This document shows, piece after piece, positions 24,239-32,000 of a stretch of DNA of 32,000 nt. The stretch covers positions 480,001 to 512,000 of the forward strand of contig NZ_JAGIOS010000001.1 of the NCBI RefSeq assembly GCF_017876815.1. The letters run 5' to 3'. The stretch is from Sinorhizobium meliloti. GTDB lineage: Bacteria; Pseudomonadota; Alphaproteobacteria; Rhizobiales; Rhizobiaceae. The notes under the pieces are model-generated. The model was not told the origin of the DNA. It saw only the letters and a program-made list of their open reading frames with translations, and ran no database searches. Position numbers and translations under genes: made by a program. The number at the start of each line of letters is the position of its first letter. The first letter of the stretch is position 1.

Positions 24239-24856
24239 CTATGTAGGAGCCCGTTCCGAGGTCTTTTCCGATCCGGCCCAGCCGACCAGACCGACGCTGG
24301 ACCTGGCAGCGGGGATATACCGGTAAAGCGTCGCTGGCGAGACACCAAGGCGGCGGGCCACGTCCTCTACGTTGATCTCCCGATCAGCGAGGAGTACCTT
24401 CGCGGCCTCCAGATCGGATGCCTTCAACTTCGGCGGCCGGCCACCCTTGCGGCCGCGTGAGCGGGCCGCATTGAGGCCGGCGCGGGTACGCTCGCGGATC
24501 ACGCCACGCTCGAACTCCGCAAGCGCCCCGAAGATCTGGACCACGAGCCCGCCGCCGGCCTTCGTCGTGTCGATCGCTTCGGTCAGCGACCGGAATCCGA
24601 TTCCGCGATCCTCCAAGGCTTCGACTGTCTCAATGAGCTGCTTGAGGGACCGGGCAAGCCGATCGAGCTTCCACACCACGAGCGTATCGCCCTCGCGCAT
24701 GTAGTCGAGTGCGGCGGCGAGCTGCGGCCGATCGCGGTTCGCCTTCGAGGCGGTCTCCTCGAAGATTCGGGCGCACTCAACCTTCTGCAGCTCATCGAGC
24801 TGCGCGGCGACTGTGTGATCTCGCGTCGAGACACGGGCATAACCTATCAACGCCAT
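24239..24856 (-). CDS. Serine recombinase (resolvase/invertase family)
   Basis: 205 aa. MALIGYARVSTRDHTVAAQLDEL (catalytic Ser in YARVST), GDTLVVWKLDRLARS, ALAEFERGVIRERTRAGL, and C-terminal HTH VARRLGVSPATLYRYI plus a ~20-aa tail. The ATG (24854-24856) overlaps the end of the vapC reading frame. Confidence 0.9.
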   Translation of the reverse strand: MALIGYARVSTRDHTVAAQLDELQKVECARIFEETASKANRDRPQLAAALDYMREGDTLVVWKLDRLARSLKQLIETVEALEDRGIGFRSLTEAIDTTKAGGGLVVQIFGALAEFERGVIRERTRAGLNAARSRGRKGGRPPKLKASDLEAAKVLLADREINVEDVARRLGVSPATLYRYIPAARSSVGLVGWAGSEKTSERAPT

Positions 24857-25241
24857 TTTTCGATATCCGTGTGTATGAAATCGTCACCCTTGAAGAGCAG
24901 GGGAGCCGAGAGGCTCTTGGCGAGGGCATAGGCGGCACAGTCAGCGAGGTTGAGTCGAGCTTTCGAGTGAATGCCCTTGCCGAATCGGCCGAAGGCTTCC
25001 GAGGCCTCGCGCGCCTGTTCCTCATTAAAGGGGGCAACCTCGATGCCGTTTACGCTTAGGAAGCGCCAGAAATCCTCCGCGCTCTCAGGGCCCCGCGTGC
25101 TCGCAGGATCATCGCGGTTTCATGTGCGTTGACCGCCGACATGACAAGCTGGTCGGCTGACGCCATAGCGTCAGCGAGCGGTAGGGCGTCGTCTTCTGCT
25201 TGGAAGATCGCGACAACGGCTGACGAATCTACGACCATCAT
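24847..25241 (-). pseudogene. vapC: PIN-domain toxin VapC, interrupted by a 1-nt frameshift
   Basis: Frame 1 (track ORF 25056..25241) reads MMVVDSSAVVAIFQAEDDALPLADAMASADQLVMSAVNAHETAMILRARG, then goes out of frame to a stop. My translation of the adjacent frame continues PESAEDFWRFLSVNGIEVAPFNEEQAREASEAFGRFGKGIHSKARLNLADCAAYALAKSLSAPLLFKGDDFIHTDIEKWR-stop (TGA 24847-24849). The total of 395 nt is not divisible by 3. The shift maps to the GGGCCCC run at 25088-25094. Confidence 0.8.
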
Positions 25242-25489
25242 AGGGCGTTCAAATCGTCAGCTATTTCCTGCGGGCTACGTGGGTCGAGGACCGGCCGAGC
25301 GGCGACCTTCTTACCGAAGGCGAGCATTTCGGCGGCCGTCATCCGGCGCTTCGCCGACAACTCGTCGGAGACGCCGAGCGCCTTGGCCTCGCGTTCGAGC
25401 GCGGCCCGGATCAGGTCTTCAGGTTTGCGGCCAACCCGGGCTGCAACCCTGCGCGCGAGCTGTTCAGTATCGTGGGTGAGCCGCAACAT
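25238..25489 (-). CDS. vapB: VapB-type antitoxin (Rv0623/PSK-transcription-factor-like)
   Basis: I start at the ATG at 25489: MLRLTHDTEQLARRVAARVGRKPEDLIRAALEREAKALGVSDELSAKRRMTAAEMLAFGKKVAARPVLDPRSPQEIADDLNAL (83 aa). The stop TGA (25238-25240) overlaps the vapC ATG (25239-25241) in an ATGA arrangement. Confidence 0.7.
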   Translation of the reverse strand: MLRLTHDTEQLARRVAARVGRKPEDLIRAALEREAKALGVSDELSAKRRMTAAEMLAFGKKVAARPVLDPRSPQEIADDLNAL

Positions 25490-25496
25490 TGGCTTC

Positions 25497-25561
25497 TCTC
25501 TCAAAAGTCGCGAATATGTAGCATGTTTTGAGAGATCGAAACAAGCAAGCGTTTTGAGAGA
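25497..25561. promoter_or_regulatory. Three copies of TTTTGAGAGA upstream of vapB (operator or res-like subsites)
   Basis: TCTCTCAAAA at 25497-25506 is inverted relative to TTTTGAGAGA at 25526-25535, with a 19-nt spacer. GTTTTGAGAGA recurs directly at 25551-25561. A possible TTGTTT-N18-TACATA promoter lies on the minus strand in the same stretch. Confidence 0.4.
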
Positions 25562-25929
25562 CAAAGGCTTGTGCTTCGATGCCCGTCGGGATGTCCGCGA
25601 AGTCGTTCAATGCTTCATGGAGGAAGCTCATCGCGGCGGTGTAGTCCTGCGGCCACGCCGACTGCGCTGTCGCGTAGTCGTAGAGCGGGAGGTTCGACAA
25701 GGCCGTTTCGGCGTTCAGAAGCGTGTTGCGATGTTCACTGGAGCCGCTGTCGAGTTGCCCGAACACGGTTTGGCCGTCGACATAGATCGGCCCCACGTAA
25801 CTCTGCTGCGTCTTCGCATCGTAGGAATAGATGTCCTGCACGGCGGCGAGGCACGACCTCGTCCTTCGCGGCGAGGCGGATGGAGCCGCCGCTGCCGAGC
25901 GCCGTGCCTACGAGGACCGCGCTGTCGCC
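25560..25929 (-). pseudogene. Orphan, chimeric, frameshifted cdiA fragment
   Basis: By hand alignment, 25560-25806 matches 27717-27963 (7 mismatches in about 247 nt). Also by hand, 25804-25929 matches 29650-29771 (about 7 mismatches plus a 1-nt insertion). The encoded ...AAKDEVV / QDIYSYDAKTQ-QSYVGPIYVDGQTVFGQLDSGSSEHRNTLLNAETALSNLPLYDYATAQSAWPQDYTAAMSFLHEALNDFADIPTGIEAQAFV then diverges into the vapB promoter. Confidence 0.85.
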
Positions 25930-26201
25930 AGCTTGACGATCAGCAGTTCACCCCTAACGTCTCAACATTAGCCATTGGCACGCGCAAGAGGTGCCCAGGT
26001 GGTCTCAGCTATTCGAGCCGGCACACTGAGTTAACCGGCGCCCGCACGCTGCTACGTTCATCGCGTAGCTGCTCGCGCCGTCTTCCGGAAAAGGTCGTTC
26101 TGGACAGAAACTTTAAGGTCACCGCAGCCCGCCCGCACTGATCCGTTTCGAGCCCAGAAACAGGGACACCGCCCAGCAGGAACGCACGGACGAGGTGAAC
26201 C

Positions 26202-26756
26202 TCAGGCTTTCTCCAATGCAATATCAATGGCACGGTCGATCATCTCAGGCTTGATCATCGGCACAAAATTTAAACGTTTTCCCCTCCTGAATATCTCCTG
26301 GTAATCCATTAACGTGCTGAAATCGCCCAAATATGCCAAAGCGGTCAAATGTTTCAACTGAGATTGGCCATTATCGGGCGGAGGACCAGAAAGCGCCTTG
26401 ACTTCAGTAAAATTGTCCTGGGCTTGCCACCATTCGATTGCTTCGCGGCTAACCATCTCTATCTCTTTTCTGGAAATTTCGGCAGCTCGCCTTTTCACGC
26501 AGTTCTGAAGAAGCCACATGTGCGTTTGCTTTATTCCGGCTATTCTTCCAAATATACTTGTGTAAGATTTTAAACCAGAAGAGATGCCGAAATACATTGT
26601 CTGATCGCAAAGAAGCTGACGGATCTGAAGAACGGCTTGGAGCTCATTATCGCCCTCGTCCATGGACAGGACAGCATCACCTGATTGTTTCTCCCTACTT
26701 GCTGTCCAGCGGAGCAACTTGAATTCCGCAAGCGCCTTCTTTTCAAATGTATTCAT
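26202..26756 (-). CDS. cdiI: Putative CdiI-type immunity protein (184 aa, no recognisable family)
   Basis: The ATG at 26754-26756 lies 3 nt after the TAA (26760-26762) of the toxin gene. The protein is cytoplasmic-looking and helical: MNTFEKKALAEFKLLRWTASREKQSGDAVLSMDEGDNELQAVLQIRQLLCDQ... It is markedly AT-richer than its neighbours (45-47% GC in two hand-counted 60-nt samples). The function is inferred from position only. Confidence 0.65.
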   Translation of the reverse strand: MNTFEKKALAEFKLLRWTASREKQSGDAVLSMDEGDNELQAVLQIRQLLCDQTMYFGISSGLKSYTSIFGRIAGIKQTHMWLLQNCVKRRAAEISRKEIEMVSREAIEWWQAQDNFTEVKALSGPPPDNGQSQLKHLTALAYLGDFSTLMDYQEIFRRGKRLNFVPMIKPEMIDRAIDIALEKA

Positions 26757-26759
26757 GAT

Positions 26760-29700
26760 TTACAATCCCGGTGCGGAAATTTGAAAGACAGGTATACCGT
26801 TCGGATAGCCTTGATCCCGCAGGGGGACATTCGGAATGAGCCTCAAACGTTCTGCGACTGGACCTGACGGCACAGCATCGCCACTCGAAATCTGCGGAAA
26901 GATCGACATTTGGGACGACGTGTTTGGCCCATTTCCAGTCTTAATCTCAATGATGCCACTGACCTGAGTTTCGCCGGGTCGACGATAAACAATGTCCGGC
27001 TTACATGAACCGGTTTTGCAGAGGCTCCCGAACGTAACGTCATTCTCAACGGTATAGCCTTGCGACGACAATTGTGCACTCACATCATTCACATATTCTT
27101 GGTGATGCTTGTATTTCCGCGTGATCGACACATTTGGATTGGTTGATGGGTTTGGAACCTGTGCTTTTCTCCCGCCAACTAGGGTGTAGTAGCGGCCACT
27201 GGTGTCCCGATAAACCTGCTGACCATCAAGGTCCGTACCTGCGACCGTGTACGATCCGCCTCTCGGGCCGGAAATCGTTCCGTCGGCATTGCGGGAATAT
27301 CCCGTGGGCAGTCCACCCTCTGGAGCCTCAACCGCCTGCCTTGCCTCAGCGACCGTATCGTACTGCTTGCCGTCCGGATCTTGTAGCACACGACGACCCG
27401 AGGACAAGGCGACGACGGTCATCCCTCTTGTCAAAAGATCGCCGAACAATGCCTCTTCCAAGGCAACCCCGGCGACCGGCCCCCATGTTCCGTTGAGGAC
27501 GGCGTTTTCTACCTCCTCGGGCGTAAGGCCCGTGCGTCCCGTCGTTCCCTCGGCAAAGCCGATGGCCGCCGCTGACCGTGACTCCGAGGGCAGCGCGGCA
27601 AGCAGCTTCTTTATCCCGTAAGCTGCTGCTATCGTCGGCTCTGCCGCACGGATGTTCGAGGCGCCATACGCCGCGAAGATCGACCGCGTCCGATCCGGCG
27701 AAGACGACAGAGCGGCGACAAAGGCTTGTGCTTCGATGCTCGTCGGAACGTCCGCGAAGTCGTTCAATGCTTCATGGAGGAAGCTCATCGCGGCGGTGTA
27801 GTCCTGCGGCCACGCCGACTGCGCTGTCGCGTAGTCGTAGAGCGCGAGGTTCGACAAGGCCGTTTCGGCATTCAGAAGCGTGTTGCGATATTCACTGGAG
27901 CCGCTGTCGAGTTGCCCGAACATGGTTTGGCCGTCGACATAGATCGGCCCCACGTAACTCTGCGCAATGAATGCTCGGGCTTCGTCTTTATAGTTGGCGC
28001 GTCGGCCGGGACCTCCATACACGCCGAAGGCGTCCGAGACGCCGTCGAGGGTTTCTGCTGCCAGGATGCCCAGCGCCTGCTCCCGTGTCAGGTCGCAGAC
28101 GTTCTTCATCCGGCACATCCAGGAAATGAATGCGCCCGCGTTTTCGTTGATCCATTCGACTTCCGTGCGGTGAAGCTGGCGGTTGTTGGTGAGCGCGGAT
28201 ACGGCAATCGCAGCGGCGAGGTTGACGTTATCAGCGTCACCGCCGGAAAGTAGGTAGCCGGCGACGGCGCCGATCAGCTCGGCGCGATCACGCTGCTCCT
28301 GATCGGACAGAGTCGTACCCTTGAGAGAGCCAGCAAAAAAGCTCTGCGCGACGGCGCCTGCCGCACCCGCTGCGCAATTGCCGCCCTGTGCCTCGGCTGC
28401 GGCGCAGCCGGCAAGCCCGTGCAGCAGCGCGCTCGGCAGGGTGCCTTCGCCGAGCCCGAGATCGCCGATGCCGCCCTGGACATCGGCGAGCGCCAGGTTG
28501 ACGACGGTGCTGAGCAGCGCCTGGGAGAAGCCGGACCCGAAATCGGTGCCGTAGACGAGCGACGTCAGGCCGGAACCGATGGCGCCGTCGAGCGCTCCGT
28601 CGAGAATGCCGCCGAGCGTCAGCTGGCCGTTGCCGAAGCCGCCGAGCAGGCTTTCGTTGAGGAGGCCCTCCGTATCGATGCCGAGGGCCGAGAGATTGAC
28701 GGCGTCCTTCAGCCCCGCGGTGGCACCGGAGAAGGCGGCGCCCTTGAGGATCTCGCCGATGTCGTAGTTGCCCGAGACGATGCCGTCGAGGCTCTCGACG
28801 ATGAAGGAGGAAGTGAAGGCTTCGGCGGCGGCCCAGCCGCTGAGACCCGGCAGGACCGTTCCGACGATGGCCGGCGCCACGAAGTTGGCAACCGCGACGG
28901 CGACGAGGGCCTTGAAGGCGGGCGAGAGGGCGACCTGCTTGTCGTAGAAGTATTCGTTGGCAAGGCCCGCCTCGATGAAGGCGAGCCCGGCGATGGCGAG
29001 GAGTTCCTCCGGATAGAGATCGCCCGGATTGGCCGGATCGACGCCGGCCTGGTTATAGAGGCTGAGGTTCGCCTGGCCGCCGATCGAGAAGTCGACCGCG
29101 CCGCCTGCCTCGAAGGAGGAGAGCTTGGCGGTCTCGCGGAAGCTTCTCTCGGTGATCGTCGTCATGGTGACGAGGCCGAGATTGTTGGAGAAGAAGGCCT
29201 TGCGCTCGCTGTCGATCGCCGCTTCGACCTTGAAGTCGCCGCCGGTATCGACCGAAAGATTGCCGCCGGCGGCAAGATGCGCCCCGACGAGCGTGGTATC
29301 GGCGCCGGAGACGAGGGTCAGATCGAGCGCTGCGAGCGCATCGGTGCCGGTGCTGAAGCGGCTCTCGGCGCTGGAGTTCGTGGTCGAGCCGAAGAGGCCG
29401 AAGAAATAGCTTTTCTTCGTCGTGCGGCTTTCCTGGAAAATGTCGGTATAGGCGCCGGCGTAGATGTCGCCTTCCGTCGCCGAGAGGCCGATGTCGCCGC
29501 CGGCCGAGACGAAGCGGGAGCCGGCGGTGACGAAATCGCCGGTCTCGGCGATGACGTCGACGTCGCCGGCCGCTGCGATCGAGACGCCCTCATTGGTGAC
29601 GCGGGCCTTGGAGACGGAGGTCGACTTCTTCTTGAAGAGGCTCTTCTTCTGCGTCTTCGCATCGTAGGAATAGATGTCCTGCGCCGCGGCGAGCACGACC

Positions 29701-32000
29701 TCGTCCTTCGCCGCGAGGCGGATGGAGCCGCCGCTGTCGAGCGCCGTGCCGACGAGGACCGCGCTGCCGCCGGCAAGCGCCGACAGGTCGCCGCCGGCGT
29801 TAAGCTTCGTCGCGGAGCTGGCGACGGTGGAGATGTCGAGGCTGGACCTGCGGCCGCTCCTTTGAAACGCGGTGGTGGACTCCACCGCCGACAGCACCAG
29901 GTCGCCGGCCGCCGCCAGGCTGAGGGCGCCCGCCGCATCGCCGGTGACGCCGGCAAGCGTCAGCGCGCCGCCACTGACGATCGCAAGGTCGCCGCCGGAT
30001 TGGAGGGTGGAGAGCTGTTGGTCGACGGTCTCGAAGGTGCCGTTGGCCCAGGTGCCGGCGAAGCTGCGTTCGAGCCCGGTCAAGGTCACGCCGGCGTTTC
30101 CGTAGATCGAAAGGTCGCCCGCGGAAACGATCGAGGTGCCGGCCGCGAGGAGTTCGCCGCCGGTCACCAGCGCAACGCTGCCGCCGCTGATCGTGGCGTT
30201 CTCGAAGGACGCGGCGTCGAGGGCGGAGAGTGTCAGGGCGCCGCTTTCGGCGATGAGTCTGCCACTATCGACCGAGACCGTGCCTGCGCTGACCGTCAGG
30301 CTGCGGCTTCCCGCGATTGTCCCGCTGCTGGTGAGCGAGCCGGAGGCGATCGCCACGTCCCTGCCCTGGATCAGGGCGCCGGTCGCGTCGAGCGAGAGCG
30401 GCACGGCCTTCGGATAGACGGTGCGCGAGCCCGAGCCGTCTGGCGCCGGCACCTGGACCGGCTTGTCGAGATAATCGAAAGCGGGGACGGGCACGCGCTC
30501 ACCCGCGCGCTTCAGGGCAGCGAGGATAGTCTCCCGACCGTTGTTGACGAGGTCGTCCCGGTAGGCGAGCCGCCCCTCGGACATCAGGTAATCAGAGGTG
30601 ACGAAATTGGCGTATTGCGTGAACTCCGGATCGGTCTCGGCAAGCGTGGTGAGGCCGGCGACGAGGAGCGCATCGACGGAAGCGGTGGGCGAGAGCGAGG
30701 GCCGAAGCGGCACGACCGGCAGCAACTTTTCGGAGAGCACCGCGGTATCGACGGGAATGACGGTCGGCGTGCCGGGAAGCGCAACGGACGCCGGTGCGGG
30801 CCTGTCCACCGCGACCGGCGCCAAAGGATCGACGACGACCGGCCCGTACCGGTTGACGGCAATCGGAGAAAGCGGATCGAACTTCGCAGGAGGGCCGGTA
30901 TCGACCTTCGTTTCTGATCCCAGATCGGTGCCTTCGACCTTGCGGACCTCGCTGCCGTTGCCGGCCACGGGCGCCGTATAGTCGTCTGTCCGGGTTTCCG
31001 TAAGCTCGAAGTTCTTGTCGCTGGCGGGCGGGACGCCGGCCATGTCCGGATCGCCTGCAGCCTGCCGCTCGGCGATATAGGCGTTGAGTTTGTCGAGCAC
31101 GTCCTTCGTGGAGAGCTCGGAGGAAGGCAGCGTGACGTTCTCGAGATTGCCGGAGATCGCAACCGTGCCGTTCGCCTCGATGCGGCCGCCGAAGGTGTCG
31201 TAGAACTCGACCTTGCCTTCGTGGCAGGTGAAGCAATCCGGGCGCTTATGCACCTCGACGAGGAACTGGCTGGCGCCGAGCGCCTGGTTCTTCACGTCGT
31301 CGGCGGTGATGACGATGTTTTCGGCCGCCGAAATATTGCCGTAGATGTTCTCGACCTTGCCGGCTTTGATGTCGATGCTGCCGCCGGCGACCAACTCGGC
31401 AAGCACGCCGTCATCCTGGAAGCGGTCCTGGTAGAGGATCTTGACGATGTCGTAGGCGGCGCCGGACCCGGCGGTCATCGCGTTCCACGGCGAGGTTGCA
31501 GCGGCCACCAGCCGGTTCGAATAGACCGTTGCGGTTTCACCCGTCGCGGGATCGGTACCGGTGCCTTCGACCTCGAGCGAGGTCGGTTTGAGGATTGCCT
31601 TGACGTCGTCCGTGACGGTGGTGCCGCCGGAGGCGAGCGTGTCCCAGAGCGCCGCATAGGCTGCGGCGTTTTGCGGCAGGATGTCGCCGTTTGAGGCGAA
31701 GGCGGTGTCGCTGACGAGCTCTTTGATCGCGGCGGCCGGATCGGGCGTTCCGGCGGCATTCGCCCTGGCGAGCATGTCCGGCCAGATGCCGGCGAAGGCG
31801 GCGGCGAGCGCCGTACCGCTCGGTGTCGTCACGCTCGGTTTGACGATCGAGCGGCTTGTGGCGGAGAGCAAGGAACCGCCACTCACCAGGTCGGCCCAGA
31901 GCGCGGCATAGGCACCGGCATGGGACGGCTTGATGTTGCCGTCGGCATCGAGATAGGCGGGATCGATCAGCTTGAGGATCTCTTCCGCCGGCTCGGTCGT
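26760..32000 (-). CDS. cdiA: CdiA-like two-partner-secretion exoprotein (filamentous haemagglutinin family) with a polymorphic C-terminal toxin; 5' end beyond the window
   Basis: The track lists 26760..31886 (1708 aa). My translation shows the frame stays open to position 32000 (...TTEPAEEILKLIDPAYLDADGNIKPSHAGAYAALWADL-VSGGSLL...). It contains FHA-type repeats (QSGGDLAIVSGGALTLAG, NAGGDLSALAGGSAVLVG, AAGGNLSVDTGGDFKVEA). These are followed by a DUF637-like hydrophobic Gly-rich block, the pretoxin stretch LHGLAGCAAAEAQGGNCAAGAAGAVAQ, and then AIAVSALTNN. Confidence 0.85.
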   Translation of the reverse strand, partial: TTEPAEEILKLIDPAYLDADGNIKPSHAGAYAALWADLVSGGSLLSATSRSIVKPSVTTPSGTALAAAFAGIWPDMLARANAAGTPDPAAAIKELVSDTAFASNGDILPQNAAAYAALWDTLASGGTTVTDDVKAILKPTSLEVEGTGTDPATGETATVYSNRLVAAATSPWNAMTAGSGAAYDIVKILYQDRFQDDGVLAELVAGGSIDIKAGKVENIYGNISAAENIVITADDVKNQALGASQFLVEVHKRPDCFTCHEGKVEFYDTFGGRIEANGTVAISGNLENVTLPSSELSTKDVLDKLNAYIAERQAAGDPDMAGVPPASDKNFELTETRTDDYTAPVAGNGSEVRKVEGTDLGSETKVDTGPPAKFDPLSPIAVNRYGPVVVDPLAPVAVDRPAPASVALPGTPTVIPVDTAVLSEKLLPVVPLRPSLSPTASVDALLVAGLTTLAETDPEFTQYANFVTSDYLMSEGRLAYRDDLVNNGRETILAALKRAGERVPVPAFDYLDKPVQVPAPDGSGSRTVYPKAVPLSLDATGALIQGRDVAIASGSLTSSGTIAGSRSLTVSAGTVSVDSGRLIAESGALTLSALDAASFENATISGGSVALVTGGELLAAGTSIVSAGDLSIYGNAGVTLTGLERSFAGTWANGTFETVDQQLSTLQSGGDLAIVSGGALTLAGVTGDAAGALSLAAAGDLVLSAVESTTAFQRSGRRSSLDISTVASSATKLNAGGDLSALAGGSAVLVGTALDSGGSIRLAAKDEVVLAAAQDIYSYDAKTQKKSLFKKKSTSVSKARVTNEGVSIAAAGDVDVIAETGDFVTAGSRFVSAGGDIGLSATEGDIYAGAYTDIFQESRTTKKSYFFGLFGSTTNSSAESRFSTGTDALAALDLTLVSGADTTLVGAHLAAGGNLSVDTGGDFKVEAAIDSERKAFFSNNLGLVTMTTITERSFRETAKLSSFEAGGAVDFSIGGQANLSLYNQAGVDPANPGDLYPEELLAIAGLAFIEAGLANEYFYDKQVALSPAFKALVAVAVANFVAPAIVGTVLPGLSGWAAAEAFTSSFIVESLDGIVSGNYDIGEILKGAAFSGATAGLKDAVNLSALGIDTEGLLNESLLGGFGNGQLTLGGILDGALDGAIGSGLTSLVYGTDFGSGFSQALLSTVVNLALADVQGGIGDLGLGEGTLPSALLHGLAGCAAAEAQGGNCAAGAAGAVAQSFFAGSLKGTTLSDQEQRDRAELIGAVAGYLLSGGDADNVNLAAAIAVSALTNNRQLHRTEVEWINENAGAFISWMCRMKNVCDLTREQALGILAAETLDGVSDAFGVYGGPGRRANYKDEARAFIAQSYVGPIYVDGQTMFGQLDSGSSEYRNTLLNAETALSNLALYDYATAQSAWPQDYTAAMSFLHEALNDFADVPTSIEAQAFVAALSSSPDRTRSIFAAYGASNIRAAEPTIAAAYGIKKLLAALPSESRSAAAIGFAEGTTGRTGLTPEEVENAVLNGTWGPVAGVALEEALFGDLLTRGMTVVALSSGRRVLQDPDGKQYDTVAEARQAVEAPEGGLPTGYSRNADGTISGPRGGSYTVAGTDLDGQQVYRDTSGRYYTLVGGRKAQVPNPSTNPNVSITRKYKHHQEYVNDVSAQLSSQGYTVENDVTFGSLCKTGSCKPDIVYRRPGETQVSGIIEIKTGNGPNTSSQMSIFPQISSGDAVPSGPVAERLRLIPNVPLRDQGYPNGIPVFQISAPGL
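26763..28181 (-). other. CdiA C-terminal (CT) region after the TNN motif: 473 aa, with a PD-(D/E)xK-like nuclease module in the last ~125 aa
   Basis: The TNN codons are 28182-28190. The toxin tip reads ITRKYKHHQEYVNDVSAQLSSQGYTVENDVTFGSLCKTGSCKPDIVYRRPGETQVSGIIEIKTGNGPNTSSQ. The D codon is 26994-26996, E is 26946-26948 and K is 26940-26942. This E...PD...ExK arrangement is the restriction-endonuclease-fold signature. Confidence 0.55.

Follow-up and report, generated by a model that had tools for sequence, protein, structure and literature searches.

Toxins with a PD-(D/E)xK core are found at the C-terminal (CT) ends of CdiA proteins that act in contact-dependent inhibition (CDI), where the DNase CdiA-CT(o11) of Escherichia coli EC869 and the tRNases of Burkholderia pseudomallei are each blocked by a small cognate CdiI protein. 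More broadly, the Tox-REase families comprise C-terminal toxins of the restriction-endonuclease fold with a D...ExK...Q signature, which are borne on T5SS, T6SS, Rhs and HINT carriers (PMC3482391). Three of these families, Tox-REase-1, -4 and -6, have E/D/ExK/Q-type signatures and T5SS carriers, with alpha-proteobacterial hosts described for -4 and -6, and the immunity proteins listed for the three are Imm-PA2201, Imm49, Imm-SUKH, Imm22 and Imm54 (PMC3482391). The toxin domain of RhsA from Pseudomonas protegens is toxic in E. coli, is neutralized by RhsI and is a predicted DNase (PMC8765631), and its toxicity is attenuated by the D1404A substitution (PMC7773334).

We analysed a 32,000-nucleotide stretch of Sinorhizobium meliloti DNA (hereafter the window) that carries the 3′ part of a cdiA gene and a small downstream gene (Table 1). 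The window is 99.9% identical to pSymB of S. meliloti USDA1021 (NZ_CP021802.1, record L002), in which those parts of the locus that lie beyond the window can be seen. In this record, the full cdiA ORF encodes 3041 aa and includes a TPS domain (PF05860, E = 6.6e-39, residues 41–300), and a 520-aa cdiB ORF with matches to ShlB (E = 1.1e-50), POTRA_2 and POTRA_3 resides directly upstream. Because a TPS-headed cdiA gene follows a ShlB/POTRA cdiB gene, the locus is, judged by its domain content, a cdiBAI locus on pSymB of S. meliloti. The original prediction, made from the window alone, had proposed a CDI effector and had named an upstream TPS domain and a cdiB partner as the features to look for; both are present. 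It had also raised the reading that the giant protein is solely an adhesin, which we reject because TPS domain, cdiB, toxin tip and immunity gene all occur together. We assign a probability of roughly 0.85 to the overall reading that the window holds the polymorphic end of a cdiBAI locus, consisting of a nuclease tip and an immunity protein of the DUF6990 family. The region encoding the CT and the putative immunity protein is a genuine toxin/immunity cassette of the CDI type, and as such a typical representative of an established class of systems. We found no experimental study of CDI in S. meliloti or other rhizobia in the searchable literature.

Table 1 Features of the cdiA–cdiI region in window coordinates
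Feature	Position	Strand	Basis or remark
cdiA, 3′ part	26760..32000	minus	Open frame to TAA 26760–26762; 1746 codons visible, runs off window end
Fil_haemagg_2 (PF13332), best-scoring filamentous-haemagglutinin repeat stretch	29199..29627 (about)	minus	Pfam E = 1.2e-10, aa 792–934 of visible translation
DUF637 (PF04830), then Cys/Gly/Ala pretoxin stretch	28353..28754 (about)	minus	Pfam E = 3.5e-10, aa 1083–1216
TNN motif at (V/F)ENN-equivalent position	28182..28190	minus	Alignment with relatives
CT residues 1–290, putative delivery (cytoplasm-entry-type) domain	27312..28181	minus	Common to CTs with other tips
CT residues 291–349, portable LPxGYxRNxDG...GRYYT module	27135..27311	minus	Recurs before tips elsewhere; GC drop starts here
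CT residues 350–473, PD-(D/E)xK-fold predicted toxin tip	26763..27134	minus	AF2 model, Foldseek, conservation, family profile
cdiI, 184-aa DUF6990 protein, putative immunity	26202..26756	minus	Pfam PF22499 E = 6.7e-29
Segment replaced in S. meliloti Ak57: LPxGY module, tip and first ~153 cdiI codons	26298..27318	minus	Genome comparison
Degenerate orphan cdiA/cdiA-CT fragment 3′ of cdiI	25560..25932	minus	Similarity to cdiA and CT

The locus shares with E. coli-type cdiBAI systems the gene order cdiB–cdiA–cdiI, a TPS domain, FHA repeats, DUF637 and a pretoxin stretch, an xNN sequence at the VENN position, a bipartite CT with a catalytic domain preceded by a putative delivery domain, an immunity gene that abuts the stop codon, and orphan fragments downstream. 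In contrast to those systems, its host replicon is a rhizobial megaplasmid and its motif is TNN, with no match to the Pfam PT-VENN model in the cdiA region even at E ≤ 10. Alignment places TNN opposite MNN in relative P0001, ENN in P0005 and P0008, and KYN in P0006, such that the second Asn is invariant; the DUF637 stretch is likewise alignable with the DUF637-bearing relatives P0001, P0005 and P0008. The CT that follows TNN consists of exactly 473 residues (26763–28181), and 3 nt (ATC) separate the cdiA stop codon from the cdiI ATG at 26756. The positions first proposed for TNN, the 473-aa CT, the TAA codon and the 184-aa ORF starting 3 nt on are all exact. A scan for promoters and terminators around cdiI yielded nothing above chance.

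The tip carries a motif composed of HHQEY (CT residues 359–363), KPD (394–396; D codon 26994–26996), EIK (412–414; E codon 26946–26948 and K codon 26940–26942) and the glutamine of SSQ (residue 424), which makes H360, D396, E412, K414 and Q424 the catalytic candidates. The pattern had been written as HHQEY(x33)KPD(x15)EIK. Its codon coordinates and the x15 hold, but x33 is the spacing from E362 to D396, and the end of HHQEY is 30 residues from KPD. Both the glutamate and the lysine of ExK are conserved in 81 of the 82 full-length family representatives, and the second histidine of HH, the PD aspartate and the SSQ glutamine are each conserved in 77; a G replaces the PD aspartate in relative P0006. 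With such conservation, the motif is no chance pattern.

An AF2 model of the tip (pLDDT 89.3) exhibits the order alpha-beta-beta-beta-alpha, with elements at H4–24, E28–30, E48–51, E60–66, H73–84 and E116–121 (tip numbering), which corresponds to the alpha-beta-beta-beta-alpha-beta core of the PD-(D/E)xK superfamily. In this model, D47 lies just before strand 48–51, and E63 and K65 reside within strand 60–66, in agreement with the D...(D/E)-x-K signature that the superfamily bears on strands 2 and 3. The Foldseek check suggested with the original prediction returned nuclease-type folds throughout: the top PDB matches all have a restriction-endonuclease fold, although they score weakly (E = 3.6e-3 at best, TM about 0.5), and the list contains the R2 endonuclease domain, AF1548, DrdV, Exo5, lambda exonuclease, Hjc and EcoRV. 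Two sequence profiles were also compared with the PDB, one built from the window tip and seven close relatives (A1) and a broader one to which distant relatives were added (A4). Profile A4 matches the RhsA toxin region (7q97_A, E = 4.3e-10) and a ‘PD-(D/E)XK endonuclease-like domain-containing protein’ (9iab_A, E = 5.7e-5). The RhsA match is only suggestive with A1 (E = 0.18), and significance thus needs the broader profile. The modelled fold, the Foldseek list, the conserved H, D, ExK and Q residues and the A4 match uphold the assignment of the tip to the PD-(D/E)xK fold, with all catalytic residues in place, and make it a predicted nuclease.

The tip, the whole CT and the first 336 CT residues match no Pfam or NCBIfam family, for Pfam even at E ≤ 10, and the CT, the tip and its distant relatives all lack matches to the named Pfam toxin-tip families (Tox-REase-2/3/5/7/9 and CdiA_C-type). 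Below threshold, and for relatives of the tip only, Pfam clan members VRR_NUC (E = 0.001), NERD and PDDEXK_1 appear. Matches of the tip profile to multiple stretches of P0076 (13) and P0122 (9) are low-scoring hits to repetitive proteins and were discarded. Pfam has models for Tox-REase-2, -3, -5, -7 and -9, and we know of none for Tox-REase-1, -4 and -6. As described, these three resemble the window tip in having a restriction-endonuclease fold with D...ExK...Q, but differ from it in their listed immunity proteins, since the putative immunity gene next to the window tip has DUF6990 as its only Pfam match.

The tip had been considered impossible to place, but it is a member of a widespread family, which comprises 224 representative clusters at 50% identity and shares homology with the RhsA toxin domain of P. 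protegens. The A4 profile aligns the PD-(D/E)xK core of the tip with that of RhsA (PDB 7q97) along ...R-x-D-I...E-V-K-x-G...L-T-x-N-Q. RhsA is antibacterial and is neutralized by the product of a downstream immunity gene (PMC8765631, PMC7773334), as may also hold for the window pair. The two differ in their route of delivery, for which RhsA uses an Rhs cage with the T6SS and the window tip would use CdiA. The window subfamily also has a C-terminal GYPNGIP extension, an HH pair and a Cys pair, none of which is present in RhsA. For one distant Rhs-linked relative, the next gene encodes a 207-aa protein that is not DUF6990 (hhalign probability 0.1%).

The substrate of the tip is more probably DNA than a specific RNA such as tRNA, and we consider a tRNase of the same architecture a rather unlikely alternative. 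Precedent for it exists in the Burkholderia 1026b and E479 toxins, which are PD-(D/E)xK CdiA-CTs that cut tRNA, and the fold, conservation and profile data fit either substrate. Moreover, the DNase activity of RhsA, the nearest studied relative, is itself only predicted (PMC8765631). However, the listed fold matches all act on DNA, and no Burkholderia-type CdiA-CT is present among the top 50 Foldseek matches or among the PDB sequence and profile matches. The B. pseudomallei CdiA-CT and EC869 CdiA-CT(o11), which are absent from the PDB sequence, profile and Foldseek matches, have only the superfamily in common with the window tip, and their immunity proteins differ in fold from the window DUF6990 protein.

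The 184-aa protein was previously deemed unclassifiable, yet it matches Pfam DUF6990 (PF22499) at 101.6 bits (cut-off 27) across the whole model (protein residues 9–180 against model positions 6–179 of 180), and it is 99% identical to an NCBI entry already named ‘DUF6990 domain-containing protein [S. meliloti]’. All invariant DUF6990 residues are retained. Its AF2 model is of high confidence (pLDDT 93), and the accompanying suggestion to seek its fold with Foldseek placed it in no solved immunity fold: there is no convincing PDB match, the best being DR_1245 (4h5b; E = 0.02, TM 0.37/0.44). A DUF6990 profile search of the PDB likewise gave no match.

Genomic context argues for a role of this protein in immunity. 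Across 45 tip loci, which span alpha-, beta- and gamma-proteobacteria and include orphan modules, a DUF6990 ORF lies directly 3′ of the tip in 41, usually within about 25 nt. Orphan arrays likewise retain intact DUF6990 genes behind truncated tips; a tandem pair occurs in Idiomarina, with several more across Celeribacter, Acinetobacter and Pseudomonas. Among 29 complete pairs, the divergence of DUF6990 correlates with that of the tip (Spearman 0.77, reached by 0 of 2000 permutations), and in 99.8% of comparisons DUF6990 has diverged further than the tip, its mean identity being 34% versus 56% for the tip. A correlation of this kind is also expected from simple linkage. Adjacency, retention in orphan arrays, faster but tracking divergence and joint replacement with the tip between strains (see below) form the signature of an immunity gene, and for this reason the DUF6990 protein is likely to be the cognate CdiI of the tip, behaving as the original prediction of a cognate immunity candidate had it.

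An accessory function (as activator or chaperone) or the presence of an unrelated passenger gene is a far less attractive explanation, which we judge highly improbable. Pfam gives DUF6990 no function and its fold resembles no solved CdiI, as might be seen for such a factor, but this explanation is at odds with its position directly downstream of the tip at nearly all loci, its retention behind truncated tips, its rapid divergence that nevertheless tracks the tip, and its replacement jointly with the tip. As an immunity protein of the CdiI type, DUF6990 gains both a likely function and a likely partner in a PD-(D/E)xK tip family for which Pfam lacks a model. The Pfam name of DUF6990 does not convey this link. 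In the searchable literature, where neither DUF6990 nor DUF4304 is mentioned, a combination of DUF6990 with this family of tips is undescribed.

The part of the CT that precedes the tip had been treated as a single unplaceable region of ~350 aa, and it instead comprises a shuffled domain of ~290 aa and a portable module of ~59 aa. The first domain (CT residues 1–290) is 48% identical to its counterpart in P0001, a protein with an AHH nuclease at its end, and 40% identical to that in P0004, which has another tip; in S. meliloti strain Ak57 an identical domain is joined to a different tip. With 59–65% GC, the domain resembles the host in base composition. No Pfam or PDB match was found for this domain (Pfam was searched with the first 336 residues at E ≤ 10), and a NucC match over it in a PDB search with the single CT sequence (E = 0.17) is only noise. 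Domain shuffling suggests that it may serve as a delivery domain that crosses the target inner membrane; to our knowledge, it exceeds all entry domains described to date in length. The LPxGY module, which has no Pfam match, precedes the same tip in a CdiA protein of R. pisi and in P0002, P0003, P0009 and L008, and precedes the AHH tip in P0001. It is absent from the Ak57 allele and from P0005–P0008, which have only the tip in common with the window CT.

Comparison with Ak57, which has the same cdiA and first CT domain, provides a clear-cut natural case of cassette exchange between two strains of S. meliloti. Similarity is 99% on both flanks and stops at 27319 and 26297. Between these points, Ak57 encodes a tip that is 50% identical and a DUF6990 protein that is 29% identical to the window versions, the latter scoring 210 bits against the Pfam model. 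Ak57 also keeps a remnant of the 3′ end of a window-type cdiI. The LPxGY module, tip and cdiI (about 26100–27300) have a GC content of 46–52%, in contrast to 59–74% elsewhere in the cdiA region. These three elements form a GC-poor cassette, probably acquired by horizontal transfer, that strains exchange with one another. E. coli-type systems likewise show strain-to-strain replacement of toxin and immunity genes, but the S. meliloti CT remains conserved for ~290 residues past the motif. Within the species, the switch occurs at the start of the LPxGY module and tip, and not at TNN.

A working model for the locus has CdiB, which is encoded beyond the window, exporting CdiA as a 3041-aa filament. 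When the filament touches a cell nearby, the 473 residues past TNN would be handed over, of which the first ~290 may carry the toxin through the target inner membrane. The ~59-aa LPxGY module would join this delivery domain to the 124-aa tip, which is predicted to cut nucleic acid, probably DNA, in the target cytoplasm by using H360, D396, E412-x-K414 and Q424. In the producer and its siblings, the DUF6990 protein would bind and neutralize the tip.

A more speculative extension, which we put forward tentatively and regard as rather doubtful in its entirety, is that GYPNGIP-type tips and DUF6990 constitute an uncharacterized toxin–immunity family that has a substrate specificity of its own and a novel fold for the immunity protein, that the 290-aa domain represents an undescribed route of inner-membrane entry, and that the S. 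meliloti alleles (USDA1021-type versus Ak57-type) confer no cross-protection. If the alleles do not cross-protect, the pSymB locus would play a part when strains compete with one another in the rhizosphere or in the course of nodulation. More generally, an intact CDI locus on pSymB could affect competition between inoculant and resident strains. The understanding of CDI itself is unchanged by this locus, which adds one family pair and one host, and which links the tip family to the T6SS effector RhsA.

It is also conceivable, but improbable, that the locus is a decaying remnant whose genes are no longer used in competition, or that the giant protein functions chiefly in adhesion or biofilm formation. 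In Ak57 the locus is disrupted: it has an IS30 transposase gene on its upstream side, its haemagglutinin gene is shortened to 1931 aa, and the expected place of cdiB is taken by no more than a remnant ORF of 256 aa. Most of the 8-kb query is present in only 2 plasmid records, and a degenerate orphan fragment, a frameshifted vapC gene and a recombinase gene are found just downstream in the window. However, cdiB (520 aa) and cdiA are intact in the record that matches the window, the catalytic candidates of the tip and the invariant DUF6990 residues are all present, and the 3-nt distance from stop to start is as for working toxin–immunity pairs, all of which argues against such decay. The orphan fragment downstream of this locus is composed of two pieces. 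One (25802–25932) matches cdiA positions 29645–29774 at 93% and is frameshifted, and the other (25560–25806) matches CT positions 27717–27963 at 97%; the two are fused to each other and are then cut off by vapBC and recombinase genes.

The cdiA frame runs uninterrupted on the minus strand from 32000 to its TAA stop at 26760–26762 and carries haemagglutinin repeats (Pfam Fil_haemagg_2, E = 1.2e-10) and a DUF637 domain (E = 3.5e-10), as the original prediction had read it. Long plus-strand ORFs overlie the gene (28419–30917 and others, up to 832 aa), and we rejected these as genes. Their translations are of low complexity and rich in Arg, Ala and Gly, as is common for shadow frames in repeats of high GC content. 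The contact-dependent inhibition (CDI) reading hinged on a TPS secretion domain and a cdiB gene lying beyond the window, and both are found in the Sinorhizobium meliloti USDA1021 pSymB record (NZ_CP021802.1), which is 99.9% identical over the window's final 8 kb. Specifically, cdiA is there an intact 3041-aa ORF with a TPS domain at residues 41–300 (E = 6.6e-39), and it is immediately preceded by an ORF with ShlB, POTRA_2 and POTRA_3 domains. By its sequence, this gene content identifies the region as part of a cdiBAI locus.

The TNN motif lies exactly 473 residues from the stop, so that both its position and the length of the C-terminal region (CT) agree with the original prediction. It aligns with ENN, MNN and KYN of related proteins, and the sequences part after the motif in proteins with a different first CT domain. 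Only nine relatives of the CT turned up among 5.8 billion proteins searched, and they cover different parts of the region. One of them (P0001) has DUF637, the xNN motif and the ~290 residues that open the CT in common with the window (48% identity over the matched part, which spans 73% of the CT), but its C terminus is an AHH nuclease instead, and another (P0004) joins the same first domain to yet another tip. Four (P0005–P0008) have only the last ~125 CT residues in common with the window, and the last ~185 are common to P0002, P0003, P0009, a Rhizobium pisi CdiA and one metagenomic ORF. Because different relatives cover different parts, the CT is made up of three modules.

Features of the CDI region and of the sequence downstream of it
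Feature	Position (strand)	Description
TNN motif	28182–28190 (-)	immediately before the 473-aa CT
First CT domain	27312–28181 (-)	CT residues 1–290
'LPxGYxRNxDG...GRYYT' module	27135–27311 (-)	CT residues 291–349
Toxin tip	26763–27134 (-)	CT residues 350–473
cdiI candidate	26202–26756 (-)	184 aa, DUF6990
cdiA copy	25802–25932 (-)	131 nt; repeats cdiA 29645–29774, 93% identical, frameshifted
CT copy	25560–25806 (-)	247 nt; 97% copy of CT 27717–27963, fused to the cdiA copy
vapB-like antitoxin	25238–25564 (-)	Rv0623-like PSK_trans_fac, E = 2.9e-6; abuts the orphan fragment
vapC (PIN domain)	24847–25241 (-)	frameshifted relative to the intact 131-aa gene of strain Ak57
Serine recombinase	24239–24856 (-)	Resolvase and HTH_7, E = 2e-41

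Domains of CdiA-CT proteins that mediate entry into the cytoplasm are known to recur in front of unrelated catalytic domains. The first CT domain recurs in just this manner, and we therefore infer that it serves in delivery. The second module (~59 aa, 'LPxGYxRNxDGxxxGPxGG...GRYYT') has no Pfam match and precedes at least two unrelated tips, the PD-(D/E)xK tip described here and the AHH nuclease of P0001. In R. pisi (L005, 1–8555), the same module and tip form the end of a 3169-aa CdiA that has TPS, Fil_haemagg_2 and DUF6862 domains, and 3 nt further on comes a 184-aa DUF6990 protein that is 59% identical to that of the window; upstream of the LPxGY module, the sequence of this CdiA shows no relationship to the first CT domain of the window.

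The tip belongs to a sizeable family of PD-(D/E)xK domains. When a profile of eight tips was searched against 1.84 billion representatives of 50% identity clusters, it matched 224 representative clusters at E ≤ 1e-3 and 50 at E ≤ 1e-30. The match sits C-terminally in its carrier proteins, which range from short orphan ORFs to chains of more than 3000 aa. D396, E412 and K414 occupy exactly the codons that had been assigned to them, and the other motif residues are also in place; however, the interval of 33 residues originally placed between HHQEY and KPD is in fact the distance from E362 to D396. Among 82 representatives that cover the tip core, the Glu and Lys of ExK are each present in 81, the Thr that follows in 80 and the next Gly in all 82, with the second His of HH, the Asp of PD and the Gln each conserved in 77.

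An AlphaFold2 model of the tip is confident (pLDDT 89.3, pTM 0.81) and has the order alpha-beta-beta-beta-alpha. A Foldseek search of the PDB with this model, the check that the original prediction had proposed, gave leading matches that all have the restriction-endonuclease fold, with modest scores (best E = 3.6e-3, TM ~0.5): the R2 endonuclease domain, AF1548, DrdV, Exo5, lambda exonuclease, MGME1, Hjc and EcoRV. The best of these, the R2 domain, carries a Cys/His zinc knuckle beside its active site. In the close subfamily of the tip, H359/H360 (~27102–27107) and C388/C393 (~27003–27020) are invariant (8/8 sequences) and could form a zinc site or a disulfide, although the Cys pair is a subfamily feature that is not conserved across the whole family.

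No Pfam family matched the tip or its distant relatives, with VRR_NUC, NERD and PDDEXK_1 appearing below threshold only. We know of no Pfam models for Tox-REase-1, -4 and -6. The signatures of these three families (Zhang et al. 2012), compared by signature alone, are compatible with the tip. A broader tip-family profile that includes distant relatives matches a solved 'PD-(D/E)XK endonuclease-like' protein (9iab_A, E = 5.7e-5) and the toxin region of Pseudomonas protegens RhsA (7q97_A, E = 4.3e-10). The RhsA toxin domain is toxic in E. coli and is neutralized by RhsI, with a DNase role predicted (PMC8765631), and its toxicity is attenuated by a D1404A change (PMC7773334). Going by the residue numbering of the deposited construct and its offset, the aligned PD aspartate may correspond to D1404. 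We lean slightly towards DNA as the substrate, the whole basis for this being that the fold neighbours act on DNA and that RhsA is a predicted DNase; the main rival is that the tip is a specific RNase.

Three bases (ATC) after the cdiA stop comes the ATG of the 184-aa ORF, with the boundaries originally predicted. Its product had been considered unclassifiable, but it matches the full model of an existing Pfam family, DUF6990 (PF22499, E = 6.7e-29), and is 99% identical to an NCBI 'DUF6990 domain-containing protein [S. meliloti]'. Its AlphaFold2 model is also confident (pLDDT 93), with an alpha/beta N-terminal half and a helical C-terminal half, and the proposed fold search gave no convincing PDB match. 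When one genome per species was scanned, 45 loci encoding a tip or tip fragment were located, in alpha- (Rhizobium, Devosia, Phyllobacterium, Paracoccus and others), beta- (Achromobacter, Pandoraea) and gamma-proteobacteria (Pseudomonas, Acinetobacter, Rheinheimera, Aliidiomarina and others). In 41 of these 45 loci, the tip is followed directly, on its own strand, by a DUF6990 ORF; of the other four, one lies at a contig end. Many of these loci are orphan modules in which the tip is truncated and the DUF6990 gene is complete, and Idiomarina has two DUF6990 genes in tandem. Across 29 complete pairs, tip and DUF6990 divergence are correlated (Spearman 0.77, a value reached in 0 of 2000 permutations), although linkage alone would also give some correlation, and in 99.8% of comparisons DUF6990 has diverged further than the tip. 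Judged from these genomic patterns, the DUF6990 protein behaves as the cognate immunity protein.

We put the probability at 0.85 that the region holds a functional CDI toxin/immunity cassette: a toxic PD-(D/E)xK nuclease tip would be delivered through CdiA, and DUF6990 would bind and block it. CDI systems with PD-(D/E)xK toxins are well documented, Pfam already lists DUF6990, and the tip belongs to a widespread family that is related to the RhsA toxin. DUF6990 is not mentioned in the searchable literature, and both its pairing with this tip family as the putative immunity protein and any CDI system of S. meliloti appear to be undescribed.

The cassette has been exchanged between strains. The GC content is 46–52% over ~26100–27300 (cdiI, tip and LPxGY module) compared with 59–74% elsewhere in the cdiA region, and the LPxGY module's first codon marks the onset of the drop. 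Over 87% of the window's final 8 kb, a replicon of S. meliloti Ak57 (L001) is 98.9% identical to it. Here, identity is 99% up to 27319 and again from 26297 downwards, and between these points Ak57 has a tip of the same family that is 50% identical and lacks the LPxGY module, along with a DUF6990 protein only 29% identical to that of the window. The break at 27319 means that the intraspecies switch point does not coincide with TNN but lies ~290 residues further downstream. Just downstream of its own DUF6990 gene, Ak57 retains a 50-codon leftover (L001, 16203–16355) that ends in the same 30 residues as the window's DUF6990 protein (...IFRRGKRLNFVPMIKPEMIDRAIDIALEKA) and is a scar of cassette replacement. 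Where cdiB and the 5′ third of cdiA would be expected, Ak57 has an IS30-family transposase and a remnant ORF of 256 aa (L001, 22860–24753), and the haemagglutinin gene is cut to 1931 aa and lacks the TPS domain. Thus, the CDI locus is probably dead in Ak57, despite its different, intact-looking tip/DUF6990 pair.

Downstream of cdiI in the window, the stretch at 25560–25932 (-) is a degenerate orphan cdiA-CT fragment that lacks an immunity gene of its own, and from which a spurious 125-aa ORF (25464–25841) arises. The fragment is ended by the vapB-like gene, the frameshifted vapC and the serine recombinase. Only a 61-aa N-terminal ORF of vapC (25056–25241) stays in frame, reflecting either a pseudogene or a sequencing error. 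The vapC–recombinase pair also occurs, at 84% identity, on plasmids of other Sinorhizobium strains in which the cdiA portion of the query finds no match, and it may therefore be a small mobile module by which the CDI locus was cut short.
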